Shown in pieces: positions 4,521-50,868 of a stretch of 64,000 nt of DNA (position 1 is the first letter of the stretch; each line of letters opens with the position of its first letter). The DNA comes from a virus. The notes under the pieces are model-generated. The model saw only the letters and a program-made list of their open reading frames with translations, was not told the DNA's origin and made no database searches. Made by a program: the position numbers and the translations under genes. The stretch is from the IMG/VR virus record IMGVR_UViG_3300042879_004946, positions 32,001 through 96,000 of that record; one strand, given 5' to 3'.

Positions 4521-4536
4521 CTGATATTTATAAAAT

Positions 4537-4968: not shown

Positions 4969-7836
4969 ATGAGCAAAGAAAAAATTTCCCAAGCGACTCC
5001 CGCTGACATTAAAACCTTTTTAGAAGGTCGTGACCCTGAAAAATATATTGTAGGAATAGAATTAGACCAAACAGATGATTGGTCGGTTGATAATTCTAAT
5101 CGTGTTTATCTTATGATTGATGACCCTGAAAAAGGTAAAAAAATTAAAACTCAAAAGTTTATACCTTTTTTATGGACCAAATCTTTAAAAGATACTGGTT
5201 TCTATGGTGATGATGTTGAAAGAATGAAGTATGAGGCAAAAAGACATGGAATTTCTACCGAAAAATTAAGAACCGATGATAATCAACGTTTAGAAGATGG
5301 TTTTAAATATTTGGTTAAAACAACTGGTACTTATCGTGATTTGGTTAACTTTTTTAAAAAAGGTGGTTTAGACCCCTGGAAACGAAAAGACGTTATACAA
5401 ATATTACCACCGATTGAACAATATATGATTCAAACCGGTAAAAGATTGTTTAAAGGTTTTGATGATTATTCTGAAGTTCATAAAGTAGTATTCGATATTG
5501 AGACCACTTCTTTAGAACCAGAAGAAGGTCATATATTTTTGATTGGTATTAAGGATAATCGTGGTTTTAGAAAGATTTTAAGTGCTTACGATGAAAATGG
5601 TGAATGGACGACTGAAGCTGAAAAAGAAATGATTATAAAGTTTTTTGAAACTATTTCTGAACTTAACGCTTCGATTATTACTGGTTATAATTCTGAAAAC
5701 TTTGACTGGCACTATATTTTAGGTAGAATGAAAATATTAGGAATCGTCAATGAATATGTTAGAGTTTCACCCAGAGGTGATAAAACTAAAACTTATACTT
5801 CAGATGGTTTTATTAAAACTAAACATCCTGGAATTCCTTTAACACGTAAAACTGCATCACTTAAATTGGGTGCAGAGTTGGAGCAATATGAACAAACAAA
5901 CATGTGGGGTTATAATATTTTAGACACCTTACATCGTGTTAGACAAGCACAAGCATTAAATTCAAACATTAAAGAAGCGGGTTTGAAATATATTGCAAAA
6001 GAAGCAAAAGTAGAAAGAGGAAATCGTGTTTATGTTGATGGTTTACAATTAGGTAGAATTTGGAATGAAAATAAACAATATTATTATAACCCTACAAGCG
6101 GTCAGTGGCATGGTTTAGAAGAAGATAAACCAGAACCAAAAATGGTGGAAAATAAAAAAGGTGAAATGGTTGTTATTGACGGATATGAAGATAAGTGGGA
6201 TATTGTTGATGGTCGATTTTTAATTACGGAATACTTAACGGATGACTTACTGGAAACCGAACAAGTAGATGATATTTACACCCAAGCAGGGTTTTTAACA
6301 GCATCACTGGTACCAACAACTTTTAGCAGAAGCATTACAATGGGAACCGCGACACTTTGGAAATTATTGATGATGGCGTGGTCGTATGAAAATGGTCTAG
6401 CAATTCCCGATACATTACCAAAAAGAGATTTTACTGGTGGTCTTTCCAGACTTTTACATTTGGGTTATAGTAAAAAAGTTGCAAAATTTGACTACGCATC
6501 ACTTTATCCGTCGATTCAATTAACGCACGAAGTTTTTCCTGATTGTGATATTACGGGTGCTCTAAGAGCTATGTTATTGTACTTATCCGAAACACGTAAT
6601 AAGTATAAAGCTTTGATGAATGAATCAAATGCGGTGGGTGACGTAAAAGCGGCTTCCATGTACGATAAAAAACAATTACCAATTAAGGGTTTAAATAATT
6701 CCGCTTTTGGTTCTATTTCCGCTCCATACATTTTTCCTTGGGGTGATATTGATATCGGTGAGATGATTACTTGTACAGGTAGACAATATCTAAGAACTAT
6801 GATTACTTTTTTCATGGAAAGAGGATACACACCTTTAGTGTTAGATACTGATGGGGTTAATTTTTCTTGTCCTGAAGATGCTGACAACCGAGAATATATT
6901 GGTAATGGTTTACATCGTTTTGTTAAAAAAGGAGTTGTATATAAAGGTATTGATGCCGATGTTGCTGAATATAACGAAAGGTTTATGCACGGTGTTATGG
7001 GTCTTGATATTGATGATATTATGGATGCAACAATTAATTTATCCAGAAAAAATTATGCAATTTTAAAACCTGGTGGAAAAGTTAAATTAACAGGTAATAC
7101 CATTAAGGGAAAAACAATACCTAAATATATTGAAAAGTTTTTAAGTAAAGCAATTAGACTGTTGTTGGATGGTAAAGGTAAGGAGTTTGTTGATTTTTAT
7201 TATGAGTATTTAGAAAAAATTTATAACAAACAAATACCTTTGGTAGATATCGCAAATAAATCAAAAGTTAAAAAAACCATTGAGAGTTATAAAAAAAGAG
7301 GTACCGACAAAAACGGTAGGGAACTATCTAGACAAGCTCACATGGAGTTAATTATTCGTGATGGTATTCACATAAACTTGGGTGATACCATTTATTATAT
7401 TAATAATGGAACTAAAAAATCTCACGCAGATATCACAACCAGTAAAACTAAAAAAGACCCACCAGAAGGTACTCTTAAATTTAATTGTTATTTGATTACC
7501 GAAGACCAGATTAAGAAAAATCCTGATTTAACTGGCGAATATAATGTACCAAAATACATTGATGCTTTTAATAAAAAAGTAGAGCCACTTTTAGTAGTGT
7601 TTCCTTTACATATTCGAGAATCTTTAATTATTGAGAACCCAGAAGACAAACAATATTTCACTTCTAAAGAATTAGAGTTAATTGGTGGTATTGCAACAAA
7701 CCCAGAAGACCAAGATACCTTAGAAGAATTGATGACTATGAGTGAAGGTGAGGTTAATTTTTGGAATAGAAAAGGTGTTTCCGAAACTTATATGATAAAA
7801 GATAGATTTCAAGAAAATAAAGAAATTATTATATAA
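4969..7836 (+). CDS. DNA polymerase family B
   Basis: Exonuclease motifs FDIETT and GYNSENFD; polymerase motifs FDYASLYPS, KGLNNSAFG and LDTDG. Confidence 0.95.
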   Translation: MSKEKISQATPADIKTFLEGRDPEKYIVGIELDQTDDWSVDNSNRVYLMIDDPEKGKKIKTQKFIPFLWTKSLKDTGFYGDDVERMKYEAKRHGISTEKLRTDDNQRLEDGFKYLVKTTGTYRDLVNFFKKGGLDPWKRKDVIQILPPIEQYMIQTGKRLFKGFDDYSEVHKVVFDIETTSLEPEEGHIFLIGIKDNRGFRKILSAYDENGEWTTEAEKEMIIKFFETISELNASIITGYNSENFDWHYILGRMKILGIVNEYVRVSPRGDKTKTYTSDGFIKTKHPGIPLTRKTASLKLGAELEQYEQTNMWGYNILDTLHRVRQAQALNSNIKEAGLKYIAKEAKVERGNRVYVDGLQLGRIWNENKQYYYNPTSGQWHGLEEDKPEPKMVENKKGEMVVIDGYEDKWDIVDGRFLITEYLTDDLLETEQVDDIYTQAGFLTASLVPTTFSRSITMGTATLWKLLMMAWSYENGLAIPDTLPKRDFTGGLSRLLHLGYSKKVAKFDYASLYPSIQLTHEVFPDCDITGALRAMLLYLSETRNKYKALMNESNAVGDVKAASMYDKKQLPIKGLNNSAFGSISAPYIFPWGDIDIGEMITCTGRQYLRTMITFFMERGYTPLVLDTDGVNFSCPEDADNREYIGNGLHRFVKKGVVYKGIDADVAEYNERFMHGVMGLDIDDIMDATINLSRKNYAILKPGGKVKLTGNTIKGKTIPKYIEKFLSKAIRLLLDGKGKEFVDFYYEYLEKIYNKQIPLVDIANKSKVKKTIESYKKRGTDKNGRELSRQAHMELIIRDGIHINLGDTIYYINNGTKKSHADITTSKTKKDPPEGTLKFNCYLITEDQIKKNPDLTGEYNVPKYIDAFNKKVEPLLVVFPLHIRESLIIENPEDKQYFTSKELELIGGIATNPEDQDTLEELMTMSEGEVNFWNRKGVSETYMIKDRFQENKEIII

Positions 7837-7871
7837 TTATATAAATTAATTTTTATGGATATTTATAAATT

Positions 7872-8135
7872 ATGATGTTAGATTTACAAGAATTTGTTAC
7901 TTACGATATAGCTTTAAAATTAAAAAAATTAGGGTATTCAACCCCTTTGACTACTTATTATAACATCTACAACAAACATGTTTTCTTTTCTAATAACGGA
8001 ATTCATAATGAAGCTATTTGGGCACCTAATTACAAACAAACTTTAGATTGGTTAACAATAGTTTTTGGTTTAAAAATTAAGCCAACAAAAGAATATATTA
8101 TTAAAGCGGTCAATGAATTAAGTGAAAAATTATAA
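7872..8135 (+). CDS. Hypothetical protein
   Basis: 87-aa ORF (FVTYDIALKLKKLGY..APNYKQTLDWL); late motif at 7858. Confidence 0.65.
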   Translation: MMLDLQEFVTYDIALKLKKLGYSTPLTTYYNIYNKHVFFSNNGIHNEAIWAPNYKQTLDWLTIVFGLKIKPTKEYIIKAVNELSEKL

Positions 8136-8176
8136 AATAAATCGTTTTTCTATGATATTTATAAAGAAAAGAAAAA

Positions 8177-8779
8177 ATGATAAATTTTGTAAACGAATTC
8201 ATTTATTTTGATGGTAAAAGAATACCCAATAGAGATGATGTGAAATCGGCTTCTAACAGCACCACAGATCCAATATTTAACCCTGAAGATGGTGAACAAT
8301 TAAAAAATGCAACAGCCCAACAACGTCAACAAGGGTATCGAGGGTATTATTCATTGGTACCGATGCCAGCCGTTAAAACACCTTTAGCTGATGATAGTTA
8401 TCCGACAATGGTTTCCTATATGGATGATGAGAAAAATATTAGGAATTTTAATAAAAACAAATTAAAAAACTTTAAAGCCAAAAGAAGAATTAAAGAAGTC
8501 GCAAAAAATAAAATAGACAATATGATTGAAGATATTGTTAATAAAAAAATAGCGAAAGATATTTTAAATGTTAGAAAAAACGGCATTCCAGATATTGATG
8601 TTGTTAGTGAAGAAAACCCGATTTTAGTTAGGAAATTAAAAAATTTAGTTGATATTGTTGATTTGAACCAGGCGACAGGTGAACAAAAAGGCGTTATTTT
8701 AAATTTTTTAATCAATAACATCGGCACTGTTGATATTCCTGTAGAATATAAAGAAGAAATTGTAAAAAAATTAAAATAA
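8177..8779 (+). CDS. Hypothetical protein (late operon)
   Basis: 200-aa ORF; GATATTTAT at 8154-8162. Confidence 0.75.
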   Translation: MINFVNEFIYFDGKRIPNRDDVKSASNSTTDPIFNPEDGEQLKNATAQQRQQGYRGYYSLVPMPAVKTPLADDSYPTMVSYMDDEKNIRNFNKNKLKNFKAKRRIKEVAKNKIDNMIEDIVNKKIAKDILNVRKNGIPDIDVVSEENPILVRKLKNLVDIVDLNQATGEQKGVILNFLINNIGTVDIPVEYKEEIVKKLK

Positions 8780-14647: not shown

Positions 14648-16233
14648 TGGTAAGTGTTGTTTACTCAACTAGGAAACCCAATAAAGAGTTTCAAGAGTAC
14701 ATTAAAAAAACCATTGGTTTAAAAGATTTTGAAATCTATGAAATTGTTAACAATGGTCAAAAATCTTTAACCCAATGTTATAATGAAGGGTTAGATAATA
14801 CCAAAAATAACATTGTTGTTTTTTGTCACGATGATATTCTTTTAAAAGAAGGTTGGGGTAAAAAAATTATAAAACATTTTCAAAATACTGATTATGGTAT
14901 TTTGGGGATGGCAGGAACTACCGACATGGCAGAAACAGGTCGTTGGTGGGAAGATCAATCAAAAATGGTTGGCATTGTTTCTCATTCTCACCAAGGAAAA
15001 ACCTGGGAAAATAGGTATTCTGAAAATTTTGGTGATGATATTATTGAAACAGTGATTCTTGATGGTTTATTTTTTGTTGCCCATAAAGACAGAATTAAAA
15101 AAAGATTTGATGAATCATTTAAAGGTTTTCATCTTTATGATGTTGATTTTACGTTTAATAACCATTTAAATGGTGTTAAAGTTGGGGTTATGTTTGATAT
15201 TAAGATAACCCATAAATCAATTGGGATGACCAACGAAGAGTGGGAAAAAAACCGTGAACAGTTTGTCCAAAAATATAAGGGTAAACTTCCCTATAAAATT
15301 AAACCTGAATTAAGGTATGAAACTAAATTTAAAGCTTTAAAAGAATACCCTAAGTTATCCATTATAATCCCAACCAAAGGTAACATAGATTTAGTTAAAC
15401 AATGTGTTGACTCACTTTATAAACAAGGTGGATATATTGGTATGGCAATGAGAACTATTATTGCTGACACTGGCTCAACACCTGAAGAATTAGCTGAGTT
15501 AAAAGATTATGTAGATGGGTTACAGTTTAAGTCGGATCAACATTACTGGGTTAAAATAGTTGAATACGACTTTTATAATTTTGCAGTTATTAACAATGAT
15601 GTGGTAGAAAACCATATTGAAAAAGATACAGAAGTTTTATTGTTCTGCAATAATGATATCAAAGTCGTTAACAATGCCATCAACTTAATGGTGGGTACTT
15701 ATCTTAAAAACAAAAAAACAGTTGGTACTATTGGTGCTCGTTTACATTTTGGTGACAATACGGTACAACATTCAGGTATTAGAGTTTTTTTAAATCAAGA
15801 ACCAAATGGTATGTATCGAATAATGTTAACACACAAAGGTTTAAAAAGTTATTATTCTTTCTATGGTGACAATAGAAAAATATTTGGTAATACTGGTGCG
15901 TTTTTAATGATTAACAAAGAATTATTTTTAAAAATTGGCGGCTTTAATACGAACTATAGAGAATGTTTTGAAGATGTCGAATTAAATATTCAATGTTTAA
16001 ACCATAATAAAGAAAATATTTTTTGTGGTGATGCAGTTTGTTATCACTATGAAAGTCAAACCAGAAACAAAGATGAAAAAAAGGCCAGAAGAGAATATGA
16101 AGATTATTCAAGACTATTAATCCCTTTTGTTGTTAATAATAAAAAAACTTATCATTATTTTGATAATATTGATGCCAAAAATTTAGATCACATTATTAAA
16201 ATATCAGATGAGTTAAAACAATTTTTAAGATAG
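14647..16233 (+). CDS. Two-domain glycosyltransferase (GT2-like plus GT2)
   Basis: FCHDDI, LDGLF, FHLYDVD; SIIIPT, FCNND, TGAFLMI, FEDVEL. Confidence 0.85.
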   Translation: MVSVVYSTRKPNKEFQEYIKKTIGLKDFEIYEIVNNGQKSLTQCYNEGLDNTKNNIVVFCHDDILLKEGWGKKIIKHFQNTDYGILGMAGTTDMAETGRWWEDQSKMVGIVSHSHQGKTWENRYSENFGDDIIETVILDGLFFVAHKDRIKKRFDESFKGFHLYDVDFTFNNHLNGVKVGVMFDIKITHKSIGMTNEEWEKNREQFVQKYKGKLPYKIKPELRYETKFKALKEYPKLSIIIPTKGNIDLVKQCVDSLYKQGGYIGMAMRTIIADTGSTPEELAELKDYVDGLQFKSDQHYWVKIVEYDFYNFAVINNDVVENHIEKDTEVLLFCNNDIKVVNNAINLMVGTYLKNKKTVGTIGARLHFGDNTVQHSGIRVFLNQEPNGMYRIMLTHKGLKSYYSFYGDNRKIFGNTGAFLMINKELFLKIGGFNTNYRECFEDVELNIQCLNHNKENIFCGDAVCYHYESQTRNKDEKKARREYEDYSRLLIPFVVNNKKTYHYFDNIDAKNLDHIIKISDELKQFLR

Positions 16234-16239
16234 AATAAA

Positions 16240-16269
16240 TTTACATTTTTAAAAAAAAAATTAATTTTA
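16240..16269 (+). promoter_or_regulatory. Putative early promoter TTTACA-N16-TAATTTTA
   Basis: Same architecture as 4882, 31754 and 41103. Confidence 0.4.
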
Positions 16270-16273
16270 AATT

Positions 16274-16675
16274 ATGGGACACCTTATACAAAACTTTAAA
16301 ACAAAAAAAATAGAAGATATTATTGAGAACTGGGAACACACAGGTCTAATATCTAATGAAATGGTAAAAAATAAACAAAATGTTGCACTTTCTTATGAGT
16401 TAACCGCGTTGTATCTTTTATCAAAAAGTGATTTTGATAGTGACAAAAACGACCTATCAACATTAATTTTCCCTGTTATGTGTAGGATTTTTAGTAAATA
16501 CGAGGAAAATTTAACAACTGATACCATTTTTGAAGAGGTTGTTAAAATAATAAAAGAATTCCAAACAAAATTAGAATCTACCGACAAAACTGAATGGTTA
16601 AAACCTTTTGTGGATACTGATTATGAGGCAGAATTTATTGTCGATTTCTGTGCTAATTATAGTATAAAAAAATAA
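16274..16675 (+). CDS. Small protein resembling the N-terminus of the major capsid protein
   Basis: WEHTGL..NVALSYE..TLIFPVMCRIFSK versus capsid WESLGF..NIALLYE..TVVFPIVRRVFSK. Confidence 0.7.
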   Translation: MGHLIQNFKTKKIEDIIENWEHTGLISNEMVKNKQNVALSYELTALYLLSKSDFDSDKNDLSTLIFPVMCRIFSKYEENLTTDTIFEEVVKIIKEFQTKLESTDKTEWLKPFVDTDYEAEFIVDFCANYSIKK

Positions 16676-16680
16676 AATAT

Positions 16681-17454
16681 ATGAAATTAGGGGTATCTTA
16701 CAACTTATGGGATGGTGAAGAGTTATTAGAAGGTTCTATTAAACAAATAAGGCAACATGTGGATTACATAAGTGTTGTTTATCAAACAATATCAAATTTT
16801 GGTAACCCGTGTAACCCTGAATTGGTTCCACTTTTAGAAAGATTAAAATCAGAGGGTTTAGTAGATGAATTATTTGAATATTCACCTAAAATCAATAAAG
16901 GTGGACATTTCAATGAAATTCAAAAAAGAAATATTGGGTTATCCTTATCTCAAGGTGCCGGATGTACACATCATATGTCTATGGATTCTGACGAATATTA
17001 TATCACGTCAGAATTTGAGAATCTTAAAAAAATAGTAGAAGATGGTGATTACGATTCCTCTTATTGTCAAATGCAAACTTACTACAAATCTTGGGAATAC
17101 GCTTTAGACCCTCCAGAAACCTATTACGTCTCATTAATATTTAAAATCAAAAATGAATCTAATTATGTTATCGGAGCTCCGGTACCAGTTTTGGTTGACC
17201 CAACAAGAAGAATGTCACCCAGTGATAAACCATTGGTTTTAAAACGTGAACAAATACAAATGCATCATGGTTCTTATATTAGAAATGATATAAGAATTAA
17301 ACTAACCAATAGTTCAGCTTCTGTTAATTTTAATAAAGATATTAATAGAATTGTTAGTCATTATGCTAATTGGAGATACCCCCAAAAAGTATTATGGGGT
17401 GGATTACCAAGTACATTACATAAAGTTAAAAAAGTTGAGGGTTTATTTGTATGA
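16681..17454 (+). CDS. Glycosyltransferase-like (GT-A)
   Basis: DGEELLEGSI, KRNIGL, SMDSDEYY (DxD). Confidence 0.65.
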   Translation: MKLGVSYNLWDGEELLEGSIKQIRQHVDYISVVYQTISNFGNPCNPELVPLLERLKSEGLVDELFEYSPKINKGGHFNEIQKRNIGLSLSQGAGCTHHMSMDSDEYYITSEFENLKKIVEDGDYDSSYCQMQTYYKSWEYALDPPETYYVSLIFKIKNESNYVIGAPVPVLVDPTRRMSPSDKPLVLKREQIQMHHGSYIRNDIRIKLTNSSASVNFNKDINRIVSHYANWRYPQKVLWGGLPSTLHKVKKVEGLFV

Positions 17455-18089
17455 AATTAAATGATTTTTTTGATGGTATATACTGTATTAACCTTGATGA
17501 ACGAACAGATAGATGGGGGCAAGCCCAAAAAGAATTCAGGAAATTAGGCATTACCGATGTTAATAGATTTTCAGCAATAAAACACGAAAAAGGGGCTATC
17601 GGTTGTAGAGAAAGTCATTTAGGTGTTATTACTGAGGCTAAGAAACTAGGTCTTAAAAATGTCCTTATCTTTGAAGATGACTTATTGGTGATTGGTGAAG
17701 ACGTAAAGAAGTTAGAAGAGACATTAAACGACATCGAAGAACTTGATTGGGATTTATTTTATTTGGGTGCTACTGTGGACCCTAACGTTAGTAGGTTACA
17801 GTATGTGACCCCTAATGTCGTTAAAACAAATTTCGCTTATACTACCCACGCGTACGCTATTAATAGTACAGCTTTCGATACAATTTTAGAACAAGCCCCA
17901 TACCATGGGATAATAGACGTTTTCTATTGTCGACACATAATACCAAGAGGTAAGTCATATATAATAAACCCAATGATGTGTATTCAACAAGAGAGTTGGA
18001 GTGATATAGAAAAACACCACGCTGACTATTGGTGGATGGTCGACTTTTTTAATCAAATTAAATTAAAAAGCGGTATTAATGATAACTAG
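17451..18089 (+). CDS. Glycosyltransferase family 25
   Basis: INLDERTDR, GCRESH, IFEDD, THAYAI. Confidence 0.85.
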   Translation: MKLNDFFDGIYCINLDERTDRWGQAQKEFRKLGITDVNRFSAIKHEKGAIGCRESHLGVITEAKKLGLKNVLIFEDDLLVIGEDVKKLEETLNDIEELDWDLFYLGATVDPNVSRLQYVTPNVVKTNFAYTTHAYAINSTAFDTILEQAPYHGIIDVFYCRHIIPRGKSYIINPMMCIQQESWSDIEKHHADYWWMVDFFNQIKLKSGINDN

Positions 18090-18894
18090 TTATTTACAGG
18101 GTGGATTAGGTAATCAAATGTTTCAAATAGCTGCTGCCTATGCTCACGCTAAAAAAAATTATGATACAGCAGTATTCGATTTAAATAATTCATATACACC
18201 ACACCAAGGTCAAAATATTTCCAAGTATAAAACTAATATATTTAATGGTTTTAATCATATGGATAATGTTTATGATTTATGTAATAACACATTTACACAA
18301 CCAAGTCATTCATATTGTGATATTCCGTATTTTAATAACCAACAATTACAAGGATACTTTCAATCTGAAAAATTTTTTATAAATAATAAAACTGAGTTGA
18401 TAAATTTGTTTATCGAAGGATTAAAATCACATAAATCTTGGTTCGAAGTTGAAAAGGATTTTAAAGACATTAGACTGTTATTACGTGGGGAAATACCCAT
18501 AGTATCGATACATATTAGACGAGGTGATTACCTTAAATTTTTAGGGATACATGACCCCTGTCCTATTGAATACTATCAAGAGTCTATCAAATTAATGAAG
18601 GATAAAATAGGTAATTTCCAACCTTATTTCATATCAGATGATATAGAGTGGTGCAAAACAGCTTTCAATGGTATTGGTATGTATTCTAATAAAAAAGACG
18701 AATTAGAAGACATGATTATAATGTTAAATTGTGATCATAATATAATCGCTAACAGTAGTTTTAGTTGGTGGGGGGCTTATTTAAATAATAATAATAATAA
18801 AATTGTCATTGGACCTGAAAAATGGTTTGGACATTACGGGCCAAAAGACCAAGATGATATAATACCAATTAATTGGATTAAAATATGGAAATAA
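18079..18894 (+). CDS. Alpha-1,2-fucosyltransferase-like (GT11)
   Basis: GGLGNQMFQ, GYFQSE, HIRRGDY, IIANSSFSWWGAYL. Confidence 0.9.
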   Translation: MITSYLQGGLGNQMFQIAAAYAHAKKNYDTAVFDLNNSYTPHQGQNISKYKTNIFNGFNHMDNVYDLCNNTFTQPSHSYCDIPYFNNQQLQGYFQSEKFFINNKTELINLFIEGLKSHKSWFEVEKDFKDIRLLLRGEIPIVSIHIRRGDYLKFLGIHDPCPIEYYQESIKLMKDKIGNFQPYFISDDIEWCKTAFNGIGMYSNKKDELEDMIIMLNCDHNIIANSSFSWWGAYLNNNNNKIVIGPEKWFGHYGPKDQDDIIPINWIKIWK

Positions 18895-42858: not shown

Positions 42859-44574
42859 TTAAAAATTGATTTCGTATTTAAATAAACCACAATCCCATAT
42901 CCTGTCATAACCCAAAAGTTTAACCATTTCCCACTCAGTTAATGAATTATCGAATCCATATTTTTGTATTATTTTTTTCTTACTCAATCTGAATTTATGG
43001 AATCTATCATTAGTATTAGTTCTTTTAAAATAAAAATAACTTTGCTTACTATTACCAATATAACTAAAACCTATTTTAGTATATAAATTATCTTGATGTG
43101 ATAAAGTCCATCTTCTATCGGCGAAACTTATTATTTTTTTAGGGTTATAATCATTTATAAATTTTTTCATCATTTTACTACCTAAACCACTTATTTTATA
43201 TTGTTTACTAGTAGCAAACCTGTTTAATACAAAAACATCACTGCTATTTTTGGCATTATTCATTCCTCTGTTATTTGAAAATGACATAACACCTACTAAA
43301 ACGTCACCATAAAAAGCTCCATAATTGATGGGTGATAAATCCTCTCCTTGTATATGATTTTCATTTAAAAAATCACATTTTAAATGGAAATCAATTTTCA
43401 TAACATTGCATTTTCTGGCACCTATTTTAATACCGTCAGACTTTTTAAGTAGATTTTTTAATTTTTCTTTTACTATTTCTTTTTTTAATATCCATTCATC
43501 GGAAAAAATATGTATTAAACCATATCCAGCAAAATTCATTAATAAAGTTTTATTTAAATGATAATTTAAATCTTTATGACCAAAATCTTCAGAGTGCCAT
43601 AAAACACCATTATATTCTATACCTATTTTTAATTCAGGTATTAAAATATCAATTTCCACACCTTTTAAAACAGTTCTATCATTAGTTATAATTTGTAAAT
43701 CTAAGCTTTTTATGAAATCAATAATTTCTTTTTCTTCCTTTGATGATTTATTAAAAGTTTTAGTTTGATTAATTATTTTACAATTTTCACTTAAAAAATT
43801 TGATATTGTTTTTGAAACTATTTTTGGTGTACCATATAATTCATTATATTTTTTCATTGTAATACCATGTTTATTTTTAAGATGAGTATTAGTTATTACA
43901 CCAAACTTTTCACCACAAATCTCACATATTACATGATTCGATTTATCATTTAAAAAATTTAATCTTTTAACTTTTTTTTCGTGTGTTGGGTGGTATACAA
44001 TGTCTTCAGGGTATTCATTTAGATATTCTTCTAAGGTTTTACTGTGTTCTTTTTTTAAATGATTTTCATAATAACCACTTTTATTGTTAATATCTATTGT
44101 TTCCCATGTACAGTATCTACATTTTCTTGTTGCCACATGTTCTAATGGTATTTCTTTTAAATCAAAAAATATTTCATGCCAATACTTACCTGTGGTTTTA
44201 AATAACATACTTCTTTTATATTGCGAAGGTATTTCTATATCACCTATTATTTGTTTAATATGTGTAAATAATACGCCCGATTTATTTGAATAATCATTAA
44301 ATACCTTACCAGTAGATTTACATATTGCTATTATTTTTTTACCATTTTCTAATAAATTTTTATTAACAACATTTTGTGTTATAATGATATCACCGTATTT
44401 TTTTTGACCACCTTTTTTATTTATTTCAATACCGTTTGACTTTAGTACGTCACTTATTTTTTTATGACCTACTGAAAATATTTTAGCTAACTTATGTGTA
44501 CTAGAAACATTACCGCTTGTATATAAATTTATTATTTTATTGATCTCTGATTGTGTTAATTTTTTTATTTTCAT
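42859..44574 (-). CDS. Hef-like putative homing endonuclease: Zn fingers, PD-(D/E)XK nuclease, GNAT/Mom-like C-terminus
   Basis: CRYC..HLKKEH, CEICG..HLKNKH, EIDILIPELKIGIEYNGVLWH, LNRFA..GLGSK..SFADRRW..LYTKIGF; free-standing, next to the capsid gene. Confidence 0.65.
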   Translation of the reverse strand: MKIKKLTQSEINKIINLYTSGNVSSTHKLAKIFSVGHKKISDVLKSNGIEINKKGGQKKYGDIIITQNVVNKNLLENGKKIIAICKSTGKVFNDYSNKSGVLFTHIKQIIGDIEIPSQYKRSMLFKTTGKYWHEIFFDLKEIPLEHVATRKCRYCTWETIDINNKSGYYENHLKKEHSKTLEEYLNEYPEDIVYHPTHEKKVKRLNFLNDKSNHVICEICGEKFGVITNTHLKNKHGITMKKYNELYGTPKIVSKTISNFLSENCKIINQTKTFNKSSKEEKEIIDFIKSLDLQIITNDRTVLKGVEIDILIPELKIGIEYNGVLWHSEDFGHKDLNYHLNKTLLMNFAGYGLIHIFSDEWILKKEIVKEKLKNLLKKSDGIKIGARKCNVMKIDFHLKCDFLNENHIQGEDLSPINYGAFYGDVLVGVMSFSNNRGMNNAKNSSDVFVLNRFATSKQYKISGLGSKMMKKFINDYNPKKIISFADRRWTLSHQDNLYTKIGFSYIGNSKQSYFYFKRTNTNDRFHKFRLSKKKIIQKYGFDNSLTEWEMVKLLGYDRIWDCGLFKYEINF

Positions 44575-44768: not shown

Positions 44769-46541
44769 TTAACGTAATTCTCTAACGTCAAATGTACGTA
44801 AACCGTCAACACGAATATGCCCATAAAAGCGGTTATTCACGAACTTTTTCGCATATCTCGTCATTATCCCCTTTACGGGTACGAAGTTAAACGGGTTATA
44901 CATTGTTGGTGTCAACTGCATCGGTACGTATGGAGCGTAGATGTAACCAGTGTCTAACAATGACTTACCTTTATGACCAATAATGATAGAGTAAGCTGGA
45001 GCGTAAGGGTCACGGTAAACTTGGTAACGTCCACCTAATGCACCGATTCTCTCGATACCCATGTTATACTGATCTTGCTCAGGAGAAGCGTTAGATACGT
45101 GGAAATATTCTAAGTCATCGAATACTGCTGATACCTCAGAAGATACAACGATGAAATTAGCACCACCACGAAGGGTTGACTTATGGATTTGAGCTGAGAT
45201 TTGGTTGATAGCGGTAATCAACGTTTGGTTCCAATCTTTTTGAGTGTAACCATTGTTGTTAGGTAGACGCTTCCATCCGTTGTAATCCCAACGTAATTGC
45301 CATGCTGCACCTTTTCTTAAGTCGATAAGGATTTCACGGTCAATTTCAGCTGCAACTTGTTCTGACAACAATGCTGTCAATTCAGCTTCAGCATCGATGT
45401 TGTGGAATGCACTAACGTCTTGTGCTAATTCAGGTGTCCAAGTAGCTCTCAACTTTCTTTCAGTCACAGAAACTGTTACAGAATCAAGTTCAAAACTTAC
45501 TTCAGCAAGTGCTGATTCAGCTTCAAGGTCAGCGTACTGTCTCCAGAACACTAATGTGTTAGCTCCACCAATTGTAGTACCAGTGTAGTTAGCACCGATG
45601 TAACCATCAAAAGTGTTTTCAGAACATGTAATACAAGTTGGAGTTGTTAGATCTAATTCGATGTAAAGGTTTCCACTAGGAGAACAAATATCACCGTAGT
45701 TAACGATACCTGTACCGTATTTTTGCGTTACCACGCGGAAAGGAATTGAATCGCCAACGTTAAAGATTACCCTTCCTGCTGAAGTAGAAATTGTAGCGGT
45801 AGCAACAACAGTTAAAGATGCCAAGAAAGCTTCAGTATCCATTTCATTACCATCTGGGCCAGAAAGACGACCAGGTGTTGTAGTGTTAAATCCTGTTACT
45901 TGAAGAACTTGGTAACGTAATGAACCATCAGAAGATGCTGGAGTTTTACCTGCCGCCCATTCAGAACCTGAAGTACAAGCGGTCAACACATATCCAGTAC
46001 CTGTAACTGCTTTCAAAGTGATTTGACCTTTTGATTGATCAAACAAACCATCGTTGTAGAATCTATCGTAAAGATTTTTAGCACAAGATGAGAAAGTAGC
46101 TGCAGATGCACAGTTAACACAAGTTGCGATTGGCATTTGAGGGTTACTAGAAGTACCACCGTTAGTGTTACTTGCAAAACCACCCGCATCAATTCTGTCA
46201 GAAGTTTTAGGTACGAAGTAGAACAATTTACCGATTGGTAGGTTCAAAGCTTGTACAGATACGATGTCATTCGCTAACAATTTAGAGAATACACGTCTTA
46301 CGATTGGGAAAACTACAGTTTCGAAAGAACCAGTAGATTGGCCACCAGTAGCTTCAGTAGTTTCGTTAATAAGAGCGCTAGCACTGTTTTCGTATAGAAG
46401 AGCAATGTTCTCTTTAATGTGGCCTTCAAGGCCTTCCAAGAATCCTAAAGATTCCCATTTGTTGATAGTTGCTTCACGGACTGCTTTTTGATGTTTAAGC
46501 CCGATATTACCAACTTCACCTGATTTTAATAAATATCCCAT
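44769..46541 (-). CDS. gp23: Major capsid protein (T4 gp23-like)
   Basis: VFPIVRR, RKLRATWTPELAQD..H.IDAEAEL..L, GAN, YAPYVP, GIMTRY. Confidence 0.95.
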   Translation of the reverse strand: MGYLLKSGEVGNIGLKHQKAVREATINKWESLGFLEGLEGHIKENIALLYENSASALINETTEATGGQSTGSFETVVFPIVRRVFSKLLANDIVSVQALNLPIGKLFYFVPKTSDRIDAGGFASNTNGGTSSNPQMPIATCVNCASAATFSSCAKNLYDRFYNDGLFDQSKGQITLKAVTGTGYVLTACTSGSEWAAGKTPASSDGSLRYQVLQVTGFNTTTPGRLSGPDGNEMDTEAFLASLTVVATATISTSAGRVIFNVGDSIPFRVVTQKYGTGIVNYGDICSPSGNLYIELDLTTPTCITCSENTFDGYIGANYTGTTIGGANTLVFWRQYADLEAESALAEVSFELDSVTVSVTERKLRATWTPELAQDVSAFHNIDAEAELTALLSEQVAAEIDREILIDLRKGAAWQLRWDYNGWKRLPNNNGYTQKDWNQTLITAINQISAQIHKSTLRGGANFIVVSSEVSAVFDDLEYFHVSNASPEQDQYNMGIERIGALGGRYQVYRDPYAPAYSIIIGHKGKSLLDTGYIYAPYVPMQLTPTMYNPFNFVPVKGIMTRYAKKFVNNRFYGHIRVDGLRTFDVRELR

Positions 46542-46575: not shown

Positions 46576-48129
46576 TTATTTTTTGTAACCGTATTCCCAA
46601 AGTTTTTTCATGTTTTGTAACTCTGGATGTACAAAAACTGTTTGTTCACTAATTTGAACTGATCCACTAGAAGCAGTTTTATTAAGTTTTTCCTCAACAG
46701 ATTCTTTAATTGTAGGTTTTGAATTAGTAAATTCTTTAACAAGTTGTTTATAGATTGATTGAGATTCTTTTAAAGATTTTGCCTCATCTAATCTTTTTAA
46801 AATTTCTTGTTTTTCCTCTTTTGTTGTACTTTGTTCAGTAAATAATCTAACTGCGTAAGTAAGATTGCTGTTGAAAACTGCTACTTCTTGAAGTTTATTT
46901 CTGAATTGTTTTAATGCGTCAACCATTTTTTCTTGGTTAGCTTTTAATTCTTCATTTTCACTTCTAAGAGTTGAAACAGATTCACTTAGATTTGTGTTTT
47001 CGTTGATGAGTTTGGAGATTTGTGGATTTTTAGATTCACCCATATAAGTTGAATTACCCATTCTTGCTATTGCGTTAGGGTTGGTTCTATTACCTACACG
47101 ATATCTACCTTTTGTAGATTTTGTTCTACTTGCGTAATCTTCATCACTATGCCTCATGTAAGAAGACATTTCATCTTCGTTACCTTTTTTACGAGCCGCT
47201 ATAACATCACCCATAGTAACTTTATTTTTGTCCCCATACATAGAGGCAAGTTCTTGGTTTGTATTATATTTTTTACGTTTCATATACATTGGCATTGACA
47301 TTTTACGTTCATTAGAATTCATATCCATATAGTCTTCATCCATATAGTCTTCATCCATATAGTCTTCATCCATATAGTCTTCATCCATATAGTCTTCATC
47401 CATATAGTCTTCATCCATATAGTCTTCATCCATATAGTCTTCATCCATATAGTCTTCATCAACTACAATTTCATATATAACTTGATTGGATTCACTTAAA
47501 CCTTCTTCCATAGATGACATTTCAACATCACCTACTTCACCGGTTCTAGTATTAAGTTCAATTCTATACTCAGATCCTGACTTATTATCTTTCAAGGTAA
47601 CCATACCATTATCGTTAACAACTTCGATTTCATCTTCTGGTCCCATTTTTTTGAAAACAGAGATTACATCAGCGTCGGAACTATCTGTAAGGTCGACAGT
47701 ATCCATTGGTTCCATCATTCCTACATCTTCGGTTTCGTCACCTAAATCAAGGTCCATATCCATATCTTCCATATCTTCATCTTCTTCAGATTCCATGTCT
47801 TCCATATCAAGATCCATGTCCATGTCCTCGTCATCACCTTCTTCTGCGCCCATGTCTAAATCCAAATCCATTTCTTCTTCACCTTCTTCGGTATCCAAAT
47901 CCATTTCTTCTTCATTGTCATCGTCAGAATCAAGTTCTAAGTCAATTTCCTCCTCTTCATCTTCCTTCAAACCCTTTTTTGAACCTGTAAGAGATTCCTT
48001 TACCATTTCTTCAATTTCTGAACTCATAGTGTGAGCCAGTATTTCTTTTGCGTTTGATTTGAAAGCGGCGTCGATTTTTTCTGCCTCTAGAAGAGCTTCT
48101 TCAATAATTGATTTTTTTTCGTTTGCCAT
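46576..48129 (-). CDS. Prohead core/scaffold protein (gp22 position), very acidic
   Basis: Directly upstream of the capsid gene; Asp/Glu/Met-rich with a coiled coil; many L/I-x-E sites. Confidence 0.75.
   Translation of the reverse strand: MANEKKSIIEEALLEAEKIDAAFKSNAKEILAHTMSSEIEEMVKESLTGSKKGLKEDEEEEIDLELDSDDDNEEEMDLDTEEGEEEMDLDLDMGAEEGDDEDMDMDLDMEDMESEEDEDMEDMDMDLDLGDETEDVGMMEPMDTVDLTDSSDADVISVFKKMGPEDEIEVVNDNGMVTLKDNKSGSEYRIELNTRTGEVGDVEMSSMEEGLSESNQVIYEIVVDEDYMDEDYMDEDYMDEDYMDEDYMDEDYMDEDYMDEDYMDEDYMDMNSNERKMSMPMYMKRKKYNTNQELASMYGDKNKVTMGDVIAARKKGNEDEMSSYMRHSDEDYASRTKSTKGRYRVGNRTNPNAIARMGNSTYMGESKNPQISKLINENTNLSESVSTLRSENEELKANQEKMVDALKQFRNKLQEVAVFNSNLTYAVRLFTEQSTTKEEKQEILKRLDEAKSLKESQSIYKQLVKEFTNSKPTIKESVEEKLNKTASSGSVQISEQTVFVHPELQNMKKLWEYGYKK
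47323..47460. repeat. Perfect 15-bp tandem repeat x9, encoding (EDYMD)9
   Basis: ATCCATATAGTCTTC repeated nine times without mismatch. Confidence 0.95.
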
Positions 48130-49540: not shown

Positions 49541-50080
49541 TTACATATAAGATTTTATTTTATCAGAACCATAAATTTTTATTAATTTTTTAATAACTGA
49601 CGCAGGATTTTTTCTCATATATTCAAGAGCTTGTGGTGGAATGTCTTCACCATATGGGCCAAAAATTGTTTTTAATTCCGATTCCCTTTGATAAGGTTCA
49701 AAACTAGATTTACGATATTTAGTTTCTTTTCTTTCTAGTTCTTTTTTTGGTGTTGCCTCATTTAATATTTTAACTACCAAGTTTTCAATATCGTTTTCGT
49801 TAAGTCTAATTATTTTACTCATTTTATTTTCTTTTAGGTTTTCCATTTTATCTTTTAAAAGTTTGATACGATTTTGTAATAACATTCTTGTACCATAAGT
49901 TGATTTACCACCTGGTGTGGCGTTACCAATCACTTTAATTTGATTTTCTATTTTAGAAATAGCTTTTTGTAAATCTTCTTTAGTTTTTAAACTTTCAACA
50001 TAACCATGACTAAAGTCACTTGGTTGTATCCTACTTTTATCACCTATACGTGATGCTCTAGCCTCGTTAAGTTTTTTCAT
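49541..50080 (-). CDS. Hypothetical protein with an internal leader-like motif
   Basis: Internal IRLNENDIENLVVKILNE matches the N-terminus of the 41062 ORF. Confidence 0.7.
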   Translation of the reverse strand: MKKLNEARASRIGDKSRIQPSDFSHGYVESLKTKEDLQKAISKIENQIKVIGNATPGGKSTYGTRMLLQNRIKLLKDKMENLKENKMSKIIRLNENDIENLVVKILNEATPKKELERKETKYRKSSFEPYQRESELKTIFGPYGEDIPPQALEYMRKNPASVIKKLIKIYGSDKIKSYM

Positions 50081-50868
50081 TTTAAAAATTTATTTAAACT
50101 GTCAATTATTTTTTGACTTCTATTATTTGTAATGTCTGTAAAAGATACTGTCGTAGGTTTAATATCTTCCATTAAATTCCATTGGCAAGTATAACCGTTA
50201 CAACCTTTTAATTGTGATTCAGTAAAAGTTTTTAAATCACCAGAATCGGTTGAAATCCAAGACCCTGGGGTTGATGGTGAGGTTACAATATCCCAACAGA
50301 TTAATTCAAAATCATCTTGAACAACGTTTTTACCATCTTCTTGTTTTAAAGAACCAACACCGCGAGAAGAGATACCAACAGTCCAACCTTTTCTAACCAT
50401 ATTTACTACTTTATCACCAACAGAACTAATAATACCAAGTTTATGATAACCTGGAGTGGTGTCAATTTCCATCTCACCCATCAAAGTCCTACCATCCCAC
50501 CAAGTTTTTGTGATTCTATGTGAAACACGGTCAGCATCGATAACGGAGGCTTCCGGGTGATTTAATTCACCTAAAGAAGTTCCCATTTTAATATATTCTT
50601 GATATCTAATATTTTCTCTTTCTAAAATTTCTTTGGGGTAAATTCTACCGTTTTTGTTTTCCACGCCCCATTTTTGAAGTACGGCATACATGGTGATCAC
50701 CTCTGGTAATGAACCGTCTTTACCGATATTAGTACCCGATTTAAATTCTCTAATTAAATTTTTATTACTAATTCCTTTATACGATAAATCAAGTGAAGCA
50801 TAACCTGCATCATATTCTACAAGTATACCTCTCCCTAATTCTCCTGGTTTTATTATTTTCATAAGCAT
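50077..50868 (-). CDS. gp21: Prohead core protease (T4 gp21-like)
   Basis: NKNGRIYP, GELNHP, GISSRGVGS, WDIVTSPS. Confidence 0.92.
   Translation of the reverse strand: MLMKIIKPGELGRGILVEYDAGYASLDLSYKGISNKNLIREFKSGTNIGKDGSLPEVITMYAVLQKWGVENKNGRIYPKEILERENIRYQEYIKMGTSLGELNHPEASVIDADRVSHRITKTWWDGRTLMGEMEIDTTPGYHKLGIISSVGDKVVNMVRKGWTVGISSRGVGSLKQEDGKNVVQDDFELICWDIVTSPSTPGSWISTDSGDLKTFTESQLKGCNGYTCQWNLMEDIKPTTVSFTDITNNRSQKIIDSLNKFLK

Follow-up and report, generated by a model that had tools for sequence, protein, structure and literature searches.

We identified, in a huge, uncultured, T4-like phage, a gene whose product is a small, folded, acidic helical protein and an old, cut-down paralogue of the phage's own major capsid protein (MCP); we call this product the mimic. 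The mimic is unable to assemble into a capsid, since neither the protease cleavage site nor any of the shell-forming domains is left in it, and it very probably belongs to a real capsid-derived family, which is large and undescribed and is without a Pfam, PHROG, or PDB relative. The DNA we analyzed (the window) is a stretch of 64,000 nucleotides, corresponding to bases 32001-96000 of a 108-kb IMG/VR viral contig that was judged 33% complete, and has a G+C content of 30%. The features discussed below are listed in Table 1.

Table 1. Positions, in window coordinates, of the mimic gene, the capsid gene, and related features.
Feature	Position	Strand	Description
Mimic gene	16274..16675	+	ATG to TAA, 133 aa; clean frame of 133 codons
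Mimic residues 14-78	16313..16507	+	three helices (KW..G(F/L)L helix, N.A..E helix, FP..R.F helix) homologous to capsid residues 23-90 (BLASTP, hhalign, T4 gp23 alignment)
Mimic residues 111-129	16604..16660	+	conserved C-terminal D.EAEF..F helix; matches start of the putative capsid spine helix
Gap upstream of mimic gene	16234..16273	+	40 bp, A/T-rich; contains TTTACA-N16-TAATTT (16241-16268)
Major capsid protein gene	44769..46541	-	gp23 type, 590 aa, template of the mimic; Pfam PF07068 E 2e-68, phrog_138
Capsid residues 23-90	46272..46475	-	propeptide helices, LINE cleavage site (57-60), first N-arm helix; the copied part
Capsid residues 378-396	45354..45410	-	start of long helix 384-409 (putative spine helix); matched by the last helix of the mimic
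Candidate scaffold protein gene	46576..48129	-	517 aa; directly upstream of capsid gene, T4-like gene order
Head maturation protease gene	50077..50868	-	T4 gp21 type; phrog_207 E 2.4e-40

Homology of the mimic to the capsid protein

BLASTP of the mimic against the MCP of the same phage gave an E-value of 5e-8 (27% identity, collinear, residues 1-79 against 1-91); the alignment begins at residue 1 in both proteins, and both open with MG-aromatic/His-L. The Smith-Waterman score of the pair is 87, compared with a mean of 32 (sd 4.8) for shuffled sequences (z = 11.4), and none of 2000 shuffles reached it, so the alignment to the capsid N-terminus claimed by the original prediction is upheld. A profile comparison, one of the checks that the prediction had named, agrees: the hhalign match between the family profile (see below) and the profile of the capsid N-terminus has a probability of 98.9% (E 1.5e-17) and covers MCP residues 25-89. 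In addition, the family profile found the MCP N-termini in 16 of 16 related viral records (E 1e-13 to 1e-16), and it also picked the MCPs of Microcystis phage Mel-JY01, Flavobacterium phage immuto, and the 484-kb phage LR756508.

The mimic has a mass of 15.6 kDa and a pI of 4.8 (family median 4.9), and its AF2 model is an all-helical, predicted 7-helix bundle (pLDDT 91.4, pTM 0.85). According to the alignment with T4 gp23, helices 2 and 3 of the mimic are the two propeptide helices, a linker stands in place of the cleavage site (LTE65 of T4 is aligned to LINE60 of the MCP), and helix 4 is the counterpart of T4 gp23 residues 94-104, the first N-arm helix; no capsid counterpart was detected for helix 5. 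Residues 94 and 97, both sites of T4 head-length mutations, fall within the equivalent of helix 4. Of the Gol equivalent (29 residues), the mimic retains just the first ∼11, and the strongly conserved capsid motif that comes after helix 4, D.VSVQ..N.P.G, is absent from the mimic. The mimic thus has N-terminal propeptide and N-arm homology to the gp23-type MCPs (PF07068) and falls outside that class, having neither a Pfam Gp23 match nor the P and A domains of the HK97 fold in its all-helical model. Its lack of the LINE cleavage site, pointed out in the original prediction, holds across the whole family: capsid Glu60, which is aligned to T4 Glu65, is invariant in MCPs, whereas only 10 of 63 family members have a glutamate at the aligned position, and no L/I-x-E protease site is conserved anywhere in the family alignment.

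Compared pairwise with the remaining capsid protein, the C-terminal half of the mimic gave no significant match. When a profile of mimic residues 80-133 was compared with the MCP profile minus its first 120 residues, it matched MCP residues 378-396 (hhalign score 26.3, P 2e-4), a score well above the maximum of 16.4 seen among 150 column-permuted controls. The matched segment lies at the opening of a long helix (residues 384-409) in a low-confidence model of the MCP (pLDDT 43.5), which was used for secondary structure alone because of that confidence; by its position after the E-loop strands, this helix is probably the spine helix of the HK97 fold, and the last helix of the mimic would then be the start of it. 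The mimic had been said to lack the rest of the capsid fold, and this is correct for the shell-forming parts (it has none of the E-loop, P, A, or insertion domains), but not for this last helix.

The head genes of the phage are arranged in the T4-like order protease-scaffold-capsid, on the strand opposite to the mimic gene. The mimic gene lies ∼28 kb from the near end of the capsid gene and ∼30 kb from its start, the latter in line with the distance predicted. The candidate scaffold protein has no family match, with just a weak match of coiled-coil type; it is a possible partner of the copied capsid module. The N-terminus of the MCP, including residues 23-90, is almost invariant among hundreds of relatives.

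We also made several observations on the capsid gene itself. Directly downstream of it is a homing-endonuclease-like HNH gene (571 aa, 42859-44574, reverse strand). Among the capsid relatives there are hundreds of short ORFs (110-320 aa; P0080-P0199) that consist of the capsid N-terminus alone; some of them are on contigs of 100-216 kb, and therefore the capsid gene may be split in some relatives by an intron or mobile element, rather than cut by the end of a contig. The insertion region of the capsid protein (residues ∼112-330) is hypervariable among relatives and rich in Ser, Thr, Gly, and Asn, and retains five invariant cysteines (C141, C144, C286, C303, and C306); it could form a domain at the surface, with disulfides or a metal site, and the glycan enzymes of the phage might act on it.

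Family, distribution, and divergence

We scanned 1.84 billion cluster representatives with HMMER (cut-off E <= 1e-3) and found 78 representatives of the mimic family, nearly all of them 115-145 aa long and matched end to end. The family alignment has a clear consensus, with an invariant W and a nearly invariant Pro, and its conserved positions (W, G-F/L-L, N.A..E, and FP..R.F) are the ones that are invariant in the capsid proteins. One match (P0071), a transposase-like repeat protein, was set aside as spurious. One member (P0025, 368 aa, on a 52-kb Logan contig) contains two tandem copies of the mimic domain, and its first 20 residues are closer to the extreme N-terminus of the capsid protein than those of the mimic in the window.

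Neither the ORF nor any of the 63 aligned members had a match in Pfam or PHROG. The PDB contained nothing significant when searched by sequence with the family profile (best E 0.033), and no structural match by Foldseek at E <= 0.001. Against BFVD, Foldseek returned a sole match, an uncharacterized 166-aa protein of Myoviridae sp. ctPuP5 that is likely a family member. The best hit of a wide fold search with VIA (Z 6.2) is in the noise range for helical bundles, and scores in the ESM Atlas (about 0.82) are at chance level. The tblastn searches of the ORF and two other members against deposited phage genomes gave no hits; locus searches for family members gave none in viral contigs, in one metagenome scan, or in genome contigs; and the literature that we searched contains no description of such a gene or such a decoy. 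Since the family is absent from Pfam, PHROGs, and deposited phage genomes (the last searched with three single members), the finding would name 78 clusters of hypothetical proteins.

Genome contexts are available for four lineages: the window phage, a complete 345-kb genome with terminal repeats (G002), LR756508, and three JGI contigs (L114-L116). All have stand-alone copies of the mimic, the first lineage in both the window phage and a near-identical contig, and in none of them is the gene located in the head module; for example, it is 80 kb from the MCP gene in G002 and 100 kb in LR756508. The neighbors differ in each case: the glycan island in the window phage; RNA ligases, PNKP, and TnpB in LR756508; in G002, a baseplate gene plus 2OG oxygenase and radical SAM genes; and three Mom-like genes, TnpB, and DnaJ in L114 and L115. 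Circumstantially, then, the mimic has genes of accessory or counter-defence type as its neighbors in the four lineages. TnpB/IS605 OrfB-type genes were seen a few kb from the mimic in two unrelated contexts (L014:13364-14656, in LR756508, and L114:2749-4017). The family profile found no copy in another complete genome (G003, 294 kb) of the same MCP clade as G002, so the mimic gene is dispensable within one capsid clade.

Of the head-related genes that we compared, the mimic diverges fastest: between the window phage and G002, the identity is 63% for the MCP, 50% for the protease, 36-44% for the scaffold candidate, and 23% for the mimic. In a tree built on 65 columns (one mis-extracted MCP row is to be disregarded), the MCP N-termini of both clades group together, apart from the small proteins, with weak support. 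This separation, together with the C-terminal half shared by the family, speaks for a single ancient origin and against recent duplications that happened repeatedly. Raw scores slightly favor the capsid protein of the same clade in three pairs; because all capsid N-termini group apart in the tree, we do not claim that the mimic tracks its own capsid protein.

The locus and the surrounding glycan island

The mimic gene is part of a long cluster of co-oriented genes for glycosyltransferases and sugar-nucleotide enzymes (the glycan island), which includes GT2, GT25, GT11, and GT10 genes, a DegT aminotransferase gene, and an RmlD-like gene. A two-domain GT2 glycosyltransferase gene ends 40 bp upstream of it and the next gene starts 5 bp past its stop codon, with no terminator between the mimic and the flanking genes; given these gaps and this absence, co-transcription with the flanking glycosyltransferase genes looks like the simplest reading. 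No Shine-Dalgarno sequence was found in the 40-bp gap. The original prediction had placed an early-type promoter there; the two hexamers are indeed present, but we rejected the promoter, because sigma-70-like sites are at chance level in this A/T-rich stretch (26 sites between 14 and 19 kb in a consensus scan, compared with 29.9 expected from shuffles) and because this pair fell below the threshold of the scan, so it was unlisted; the hexamers are thus not evidence of a promoter.

A separate motif, ATATTTATA, is enriched in the window (12 sites, e.g., at 4524, 8155, 35004, 38591, 42848, 44603, 53403, and 57830, compared with 5.7 expected; 0 of 100 shuffles reach 12). Most of its copies precede an ORF start of the same strand by 10-30 nt, and for this reason it is likely a phage promoter element. 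It is absent from the 40-bp gap upstream of the mimic.

The glycan island is a mosaic when positions 15300-18500 of the window are compared with positions 5000-8300 of the near-identical contig (L003). The genes upstream are 100% identical, and a 704-bp block (15988-16691) that spans the mimic has zero differences, while the GT2 gene carries an internal patch that is ∼40% divergent, and from ∼17.4 kb on the genes are swapped for different ones.

Possible functions and comparison with known systems

What the copied region does in T4 frames the question of function. The 65-residue propeptide of gp23 is removed by gp21 (PMC9958956). In the unexpanded T4 head the gp23 chain before Leu106 (to about residue 105) points inward and probably contacted the scaffold core, and the head-length mutations A66D, A94V, and G97S are within this inward stretch (PMC9546572). 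EF-Tu is bound by the Gol stretch, and more stably by ∼100 residues of the first quarter of gp23; this binding licenses cleavage by Lit, and the region was noted as the most conserved of gp23 (PMC3014915). Capsid proteins are also direct triggers of other defences, e.g., CapRel-SJ46 (PMC9712102).

Our preferred reading, to which we assign a probability of about 0.4, is that the mimic competes for a partner of the capsid N-terminal module. As a soluble protein, it would display the surface that faces inward when capsid protein is unassembled or in the prohead state, and would compete for whatever recognizes that surface. The preferred partner would be a non-essential factor of conflict type, i.e., a host sensor of capsid proteins or an interaction of EF-Tu type (as with the T4 Gol region); the main alternative would be the scaffold core or the prohead protease. 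Within this mechanism we rate a host factor somewhat above the scaffold or the protease as partner, in view of the dispensability of the gene, its fast divergence, and its position among accessory genes. The original prediction had suggested that the mimic may be a decoy for capsid sensing, may inhibit head assembly of rival phages, or may regulate assembly. Patchy presence, fastest divergence, and accessory neighbors all lean, circumstantially, towards a conflict or accessory role; the T4 literature, by analogy, would favor a role in scaffold or protease contact for the copied region about equally well.

In a counter-defence version of the competitor mechanism, the mimic would occupy the sensor ahead of the genuine capsid protein, and late gene expression could then proceed without setting off abortive infection. 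That this is a kind of phage counter-defence not yet described, in which a non-activating soluble copy occupies a host capsid sensor or the EF-Tu surface used by Lit-type systems, we regard as unlikely. Some points weigh against the competitor mechanism as a whole: a look-alike that keeps the recognized surface could trigger the sensor instead of blocking it, the divergence of the mimic's surface could come from relaxed constraint, not from an arms race, and the mimic is missing most of the Gol equivalent and the conserved motif that comes after it.

The next reading, which we consider somewhat unlikely, is that of an auxiliary prohead protein: a free propeptide-like module that would bind the scaffold core or the propeptides of neighboring capsid proteins, and would become part of the prohead or influence how, or to what size, it assembles, comparable to the scaffold action of the fused delta domains of HK97 and T5; in a variant, it would hold the prohead protease in check as a pseudo-substrate that cannot be cleaved. 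In T4, the scaffold contact and the control of head length are both ascribed to the region that was copied, and scaffold function can be either fused or free, with some phages using the capsid N-terminus itself as scaffold (PMC9546572); the mimic is acidic and helical, as scaffold proteins are; the phage has a T4-like protease-scaffold-capsid module; and the scaffold candidate is itself fast-diverging, so a fast-evolving binder would be compatible with this role. It fits less well that a complete genome of the same capsid clade (G003) is missing the mimic, that the gene is outside the head module in four lineages, that there is no conserved protease site, unlike in T4 core proteins, and that the mimic makes up the whole protein, which therefore has no cargo to deliver.

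A partnership with the glycan island, where the mimic would, for example, serve in trans as a leader-like or docking module for the enzymes modifying the Ser/Thr/Gly-rich hypervariable insertion of the capsid protein, is highly improbable. The gene is embedded in the co-oriented glycosyltransferase cluster with gaps of 5-40 bp, and is 100% identical in the near relative in which the downstream glycan genes are swapped; the same swap, however, shows that no one set of enzymes goes with the mimic, the family members in three other lineages adjoin unrelated genes, and glycosylation of this phage's capsid is without evidence. It is barely credible that the mimic is a decaying, functionless remnant of a partial duplication of the capsid gene: the very first residues are common to both proteins and the homing-endonuclease-like gene next to the capsid gene makes local rearrangements plausible, but 78 divergent representatives, mostly full-length, keep the length and the motifs, the fold is predicted with confidence, the C-terminal half found across the family is absent from the capsid N-terminus, and the tree, even with its weak support, sets the capsid N-termini apart from the small proteins, arguing for one old origin.

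Several known systems come close to the mimic. As for Gol/Lit of T4 and CapRel-SJ46, the copied region overlaps the EF-Tu-binding, Lit-sensed first quarter of gp23; the mimic differs in keeping just the first ∼11 Gol-equivalent residues. The T4 internal proteins IPI-III and Alt carry a capsid-targeting sequence of ∼10 residues that takes them into the prohead core (PMC9958956), and the mimic, likewise a small phage protein, could reach the core by way of an N-terminal signal akin to head proteins; unlike them, it copies ∼80 capsid residues instead of a 10-residue tag, has no conserved L/I-x-E site, is acidic rather than basic, and is without a cargo domain. With the N-terminal region of T4 gp23 (the 65-residue propeptide, the start of the N-arm, and the first part of Gol) the mimic shares three collinear helices from residue 1; it differs in being encoded by a separate gene for 133 aa, in its extra helix and putative spine-helix fragment, in its much faster divergence, and in that the cleavage glutamate is not conserved.

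Like the delta domains of HK97 gp5 and T5 pb8 and the free scaffolds T4 gp22 and P22 gp8, the mimic is an acidic helical module, and the capsid N-terminus that it copies faces the prohead interior, as they do. No homology to gp22-type scaffolds was detected; in contrast to the delta domains and scaffolds, the mimic occurs in a phage whose capsid protein has a propeptide of its own and which also has a separate scaffold candidate, and it is encoded outside the head module and is dispensable among relatives. In T4-type capsid proteins, the N-terminal part serves as the probable scaffold contact and also as the Gol/EF-Tu contact; the mimic family, a widespread set of free-standing copies of this part, could point to a new means by which phages conceal a conserved molecular pattern, and could be an entry point to the interface between capsid and scaffold in large T4-like heads.
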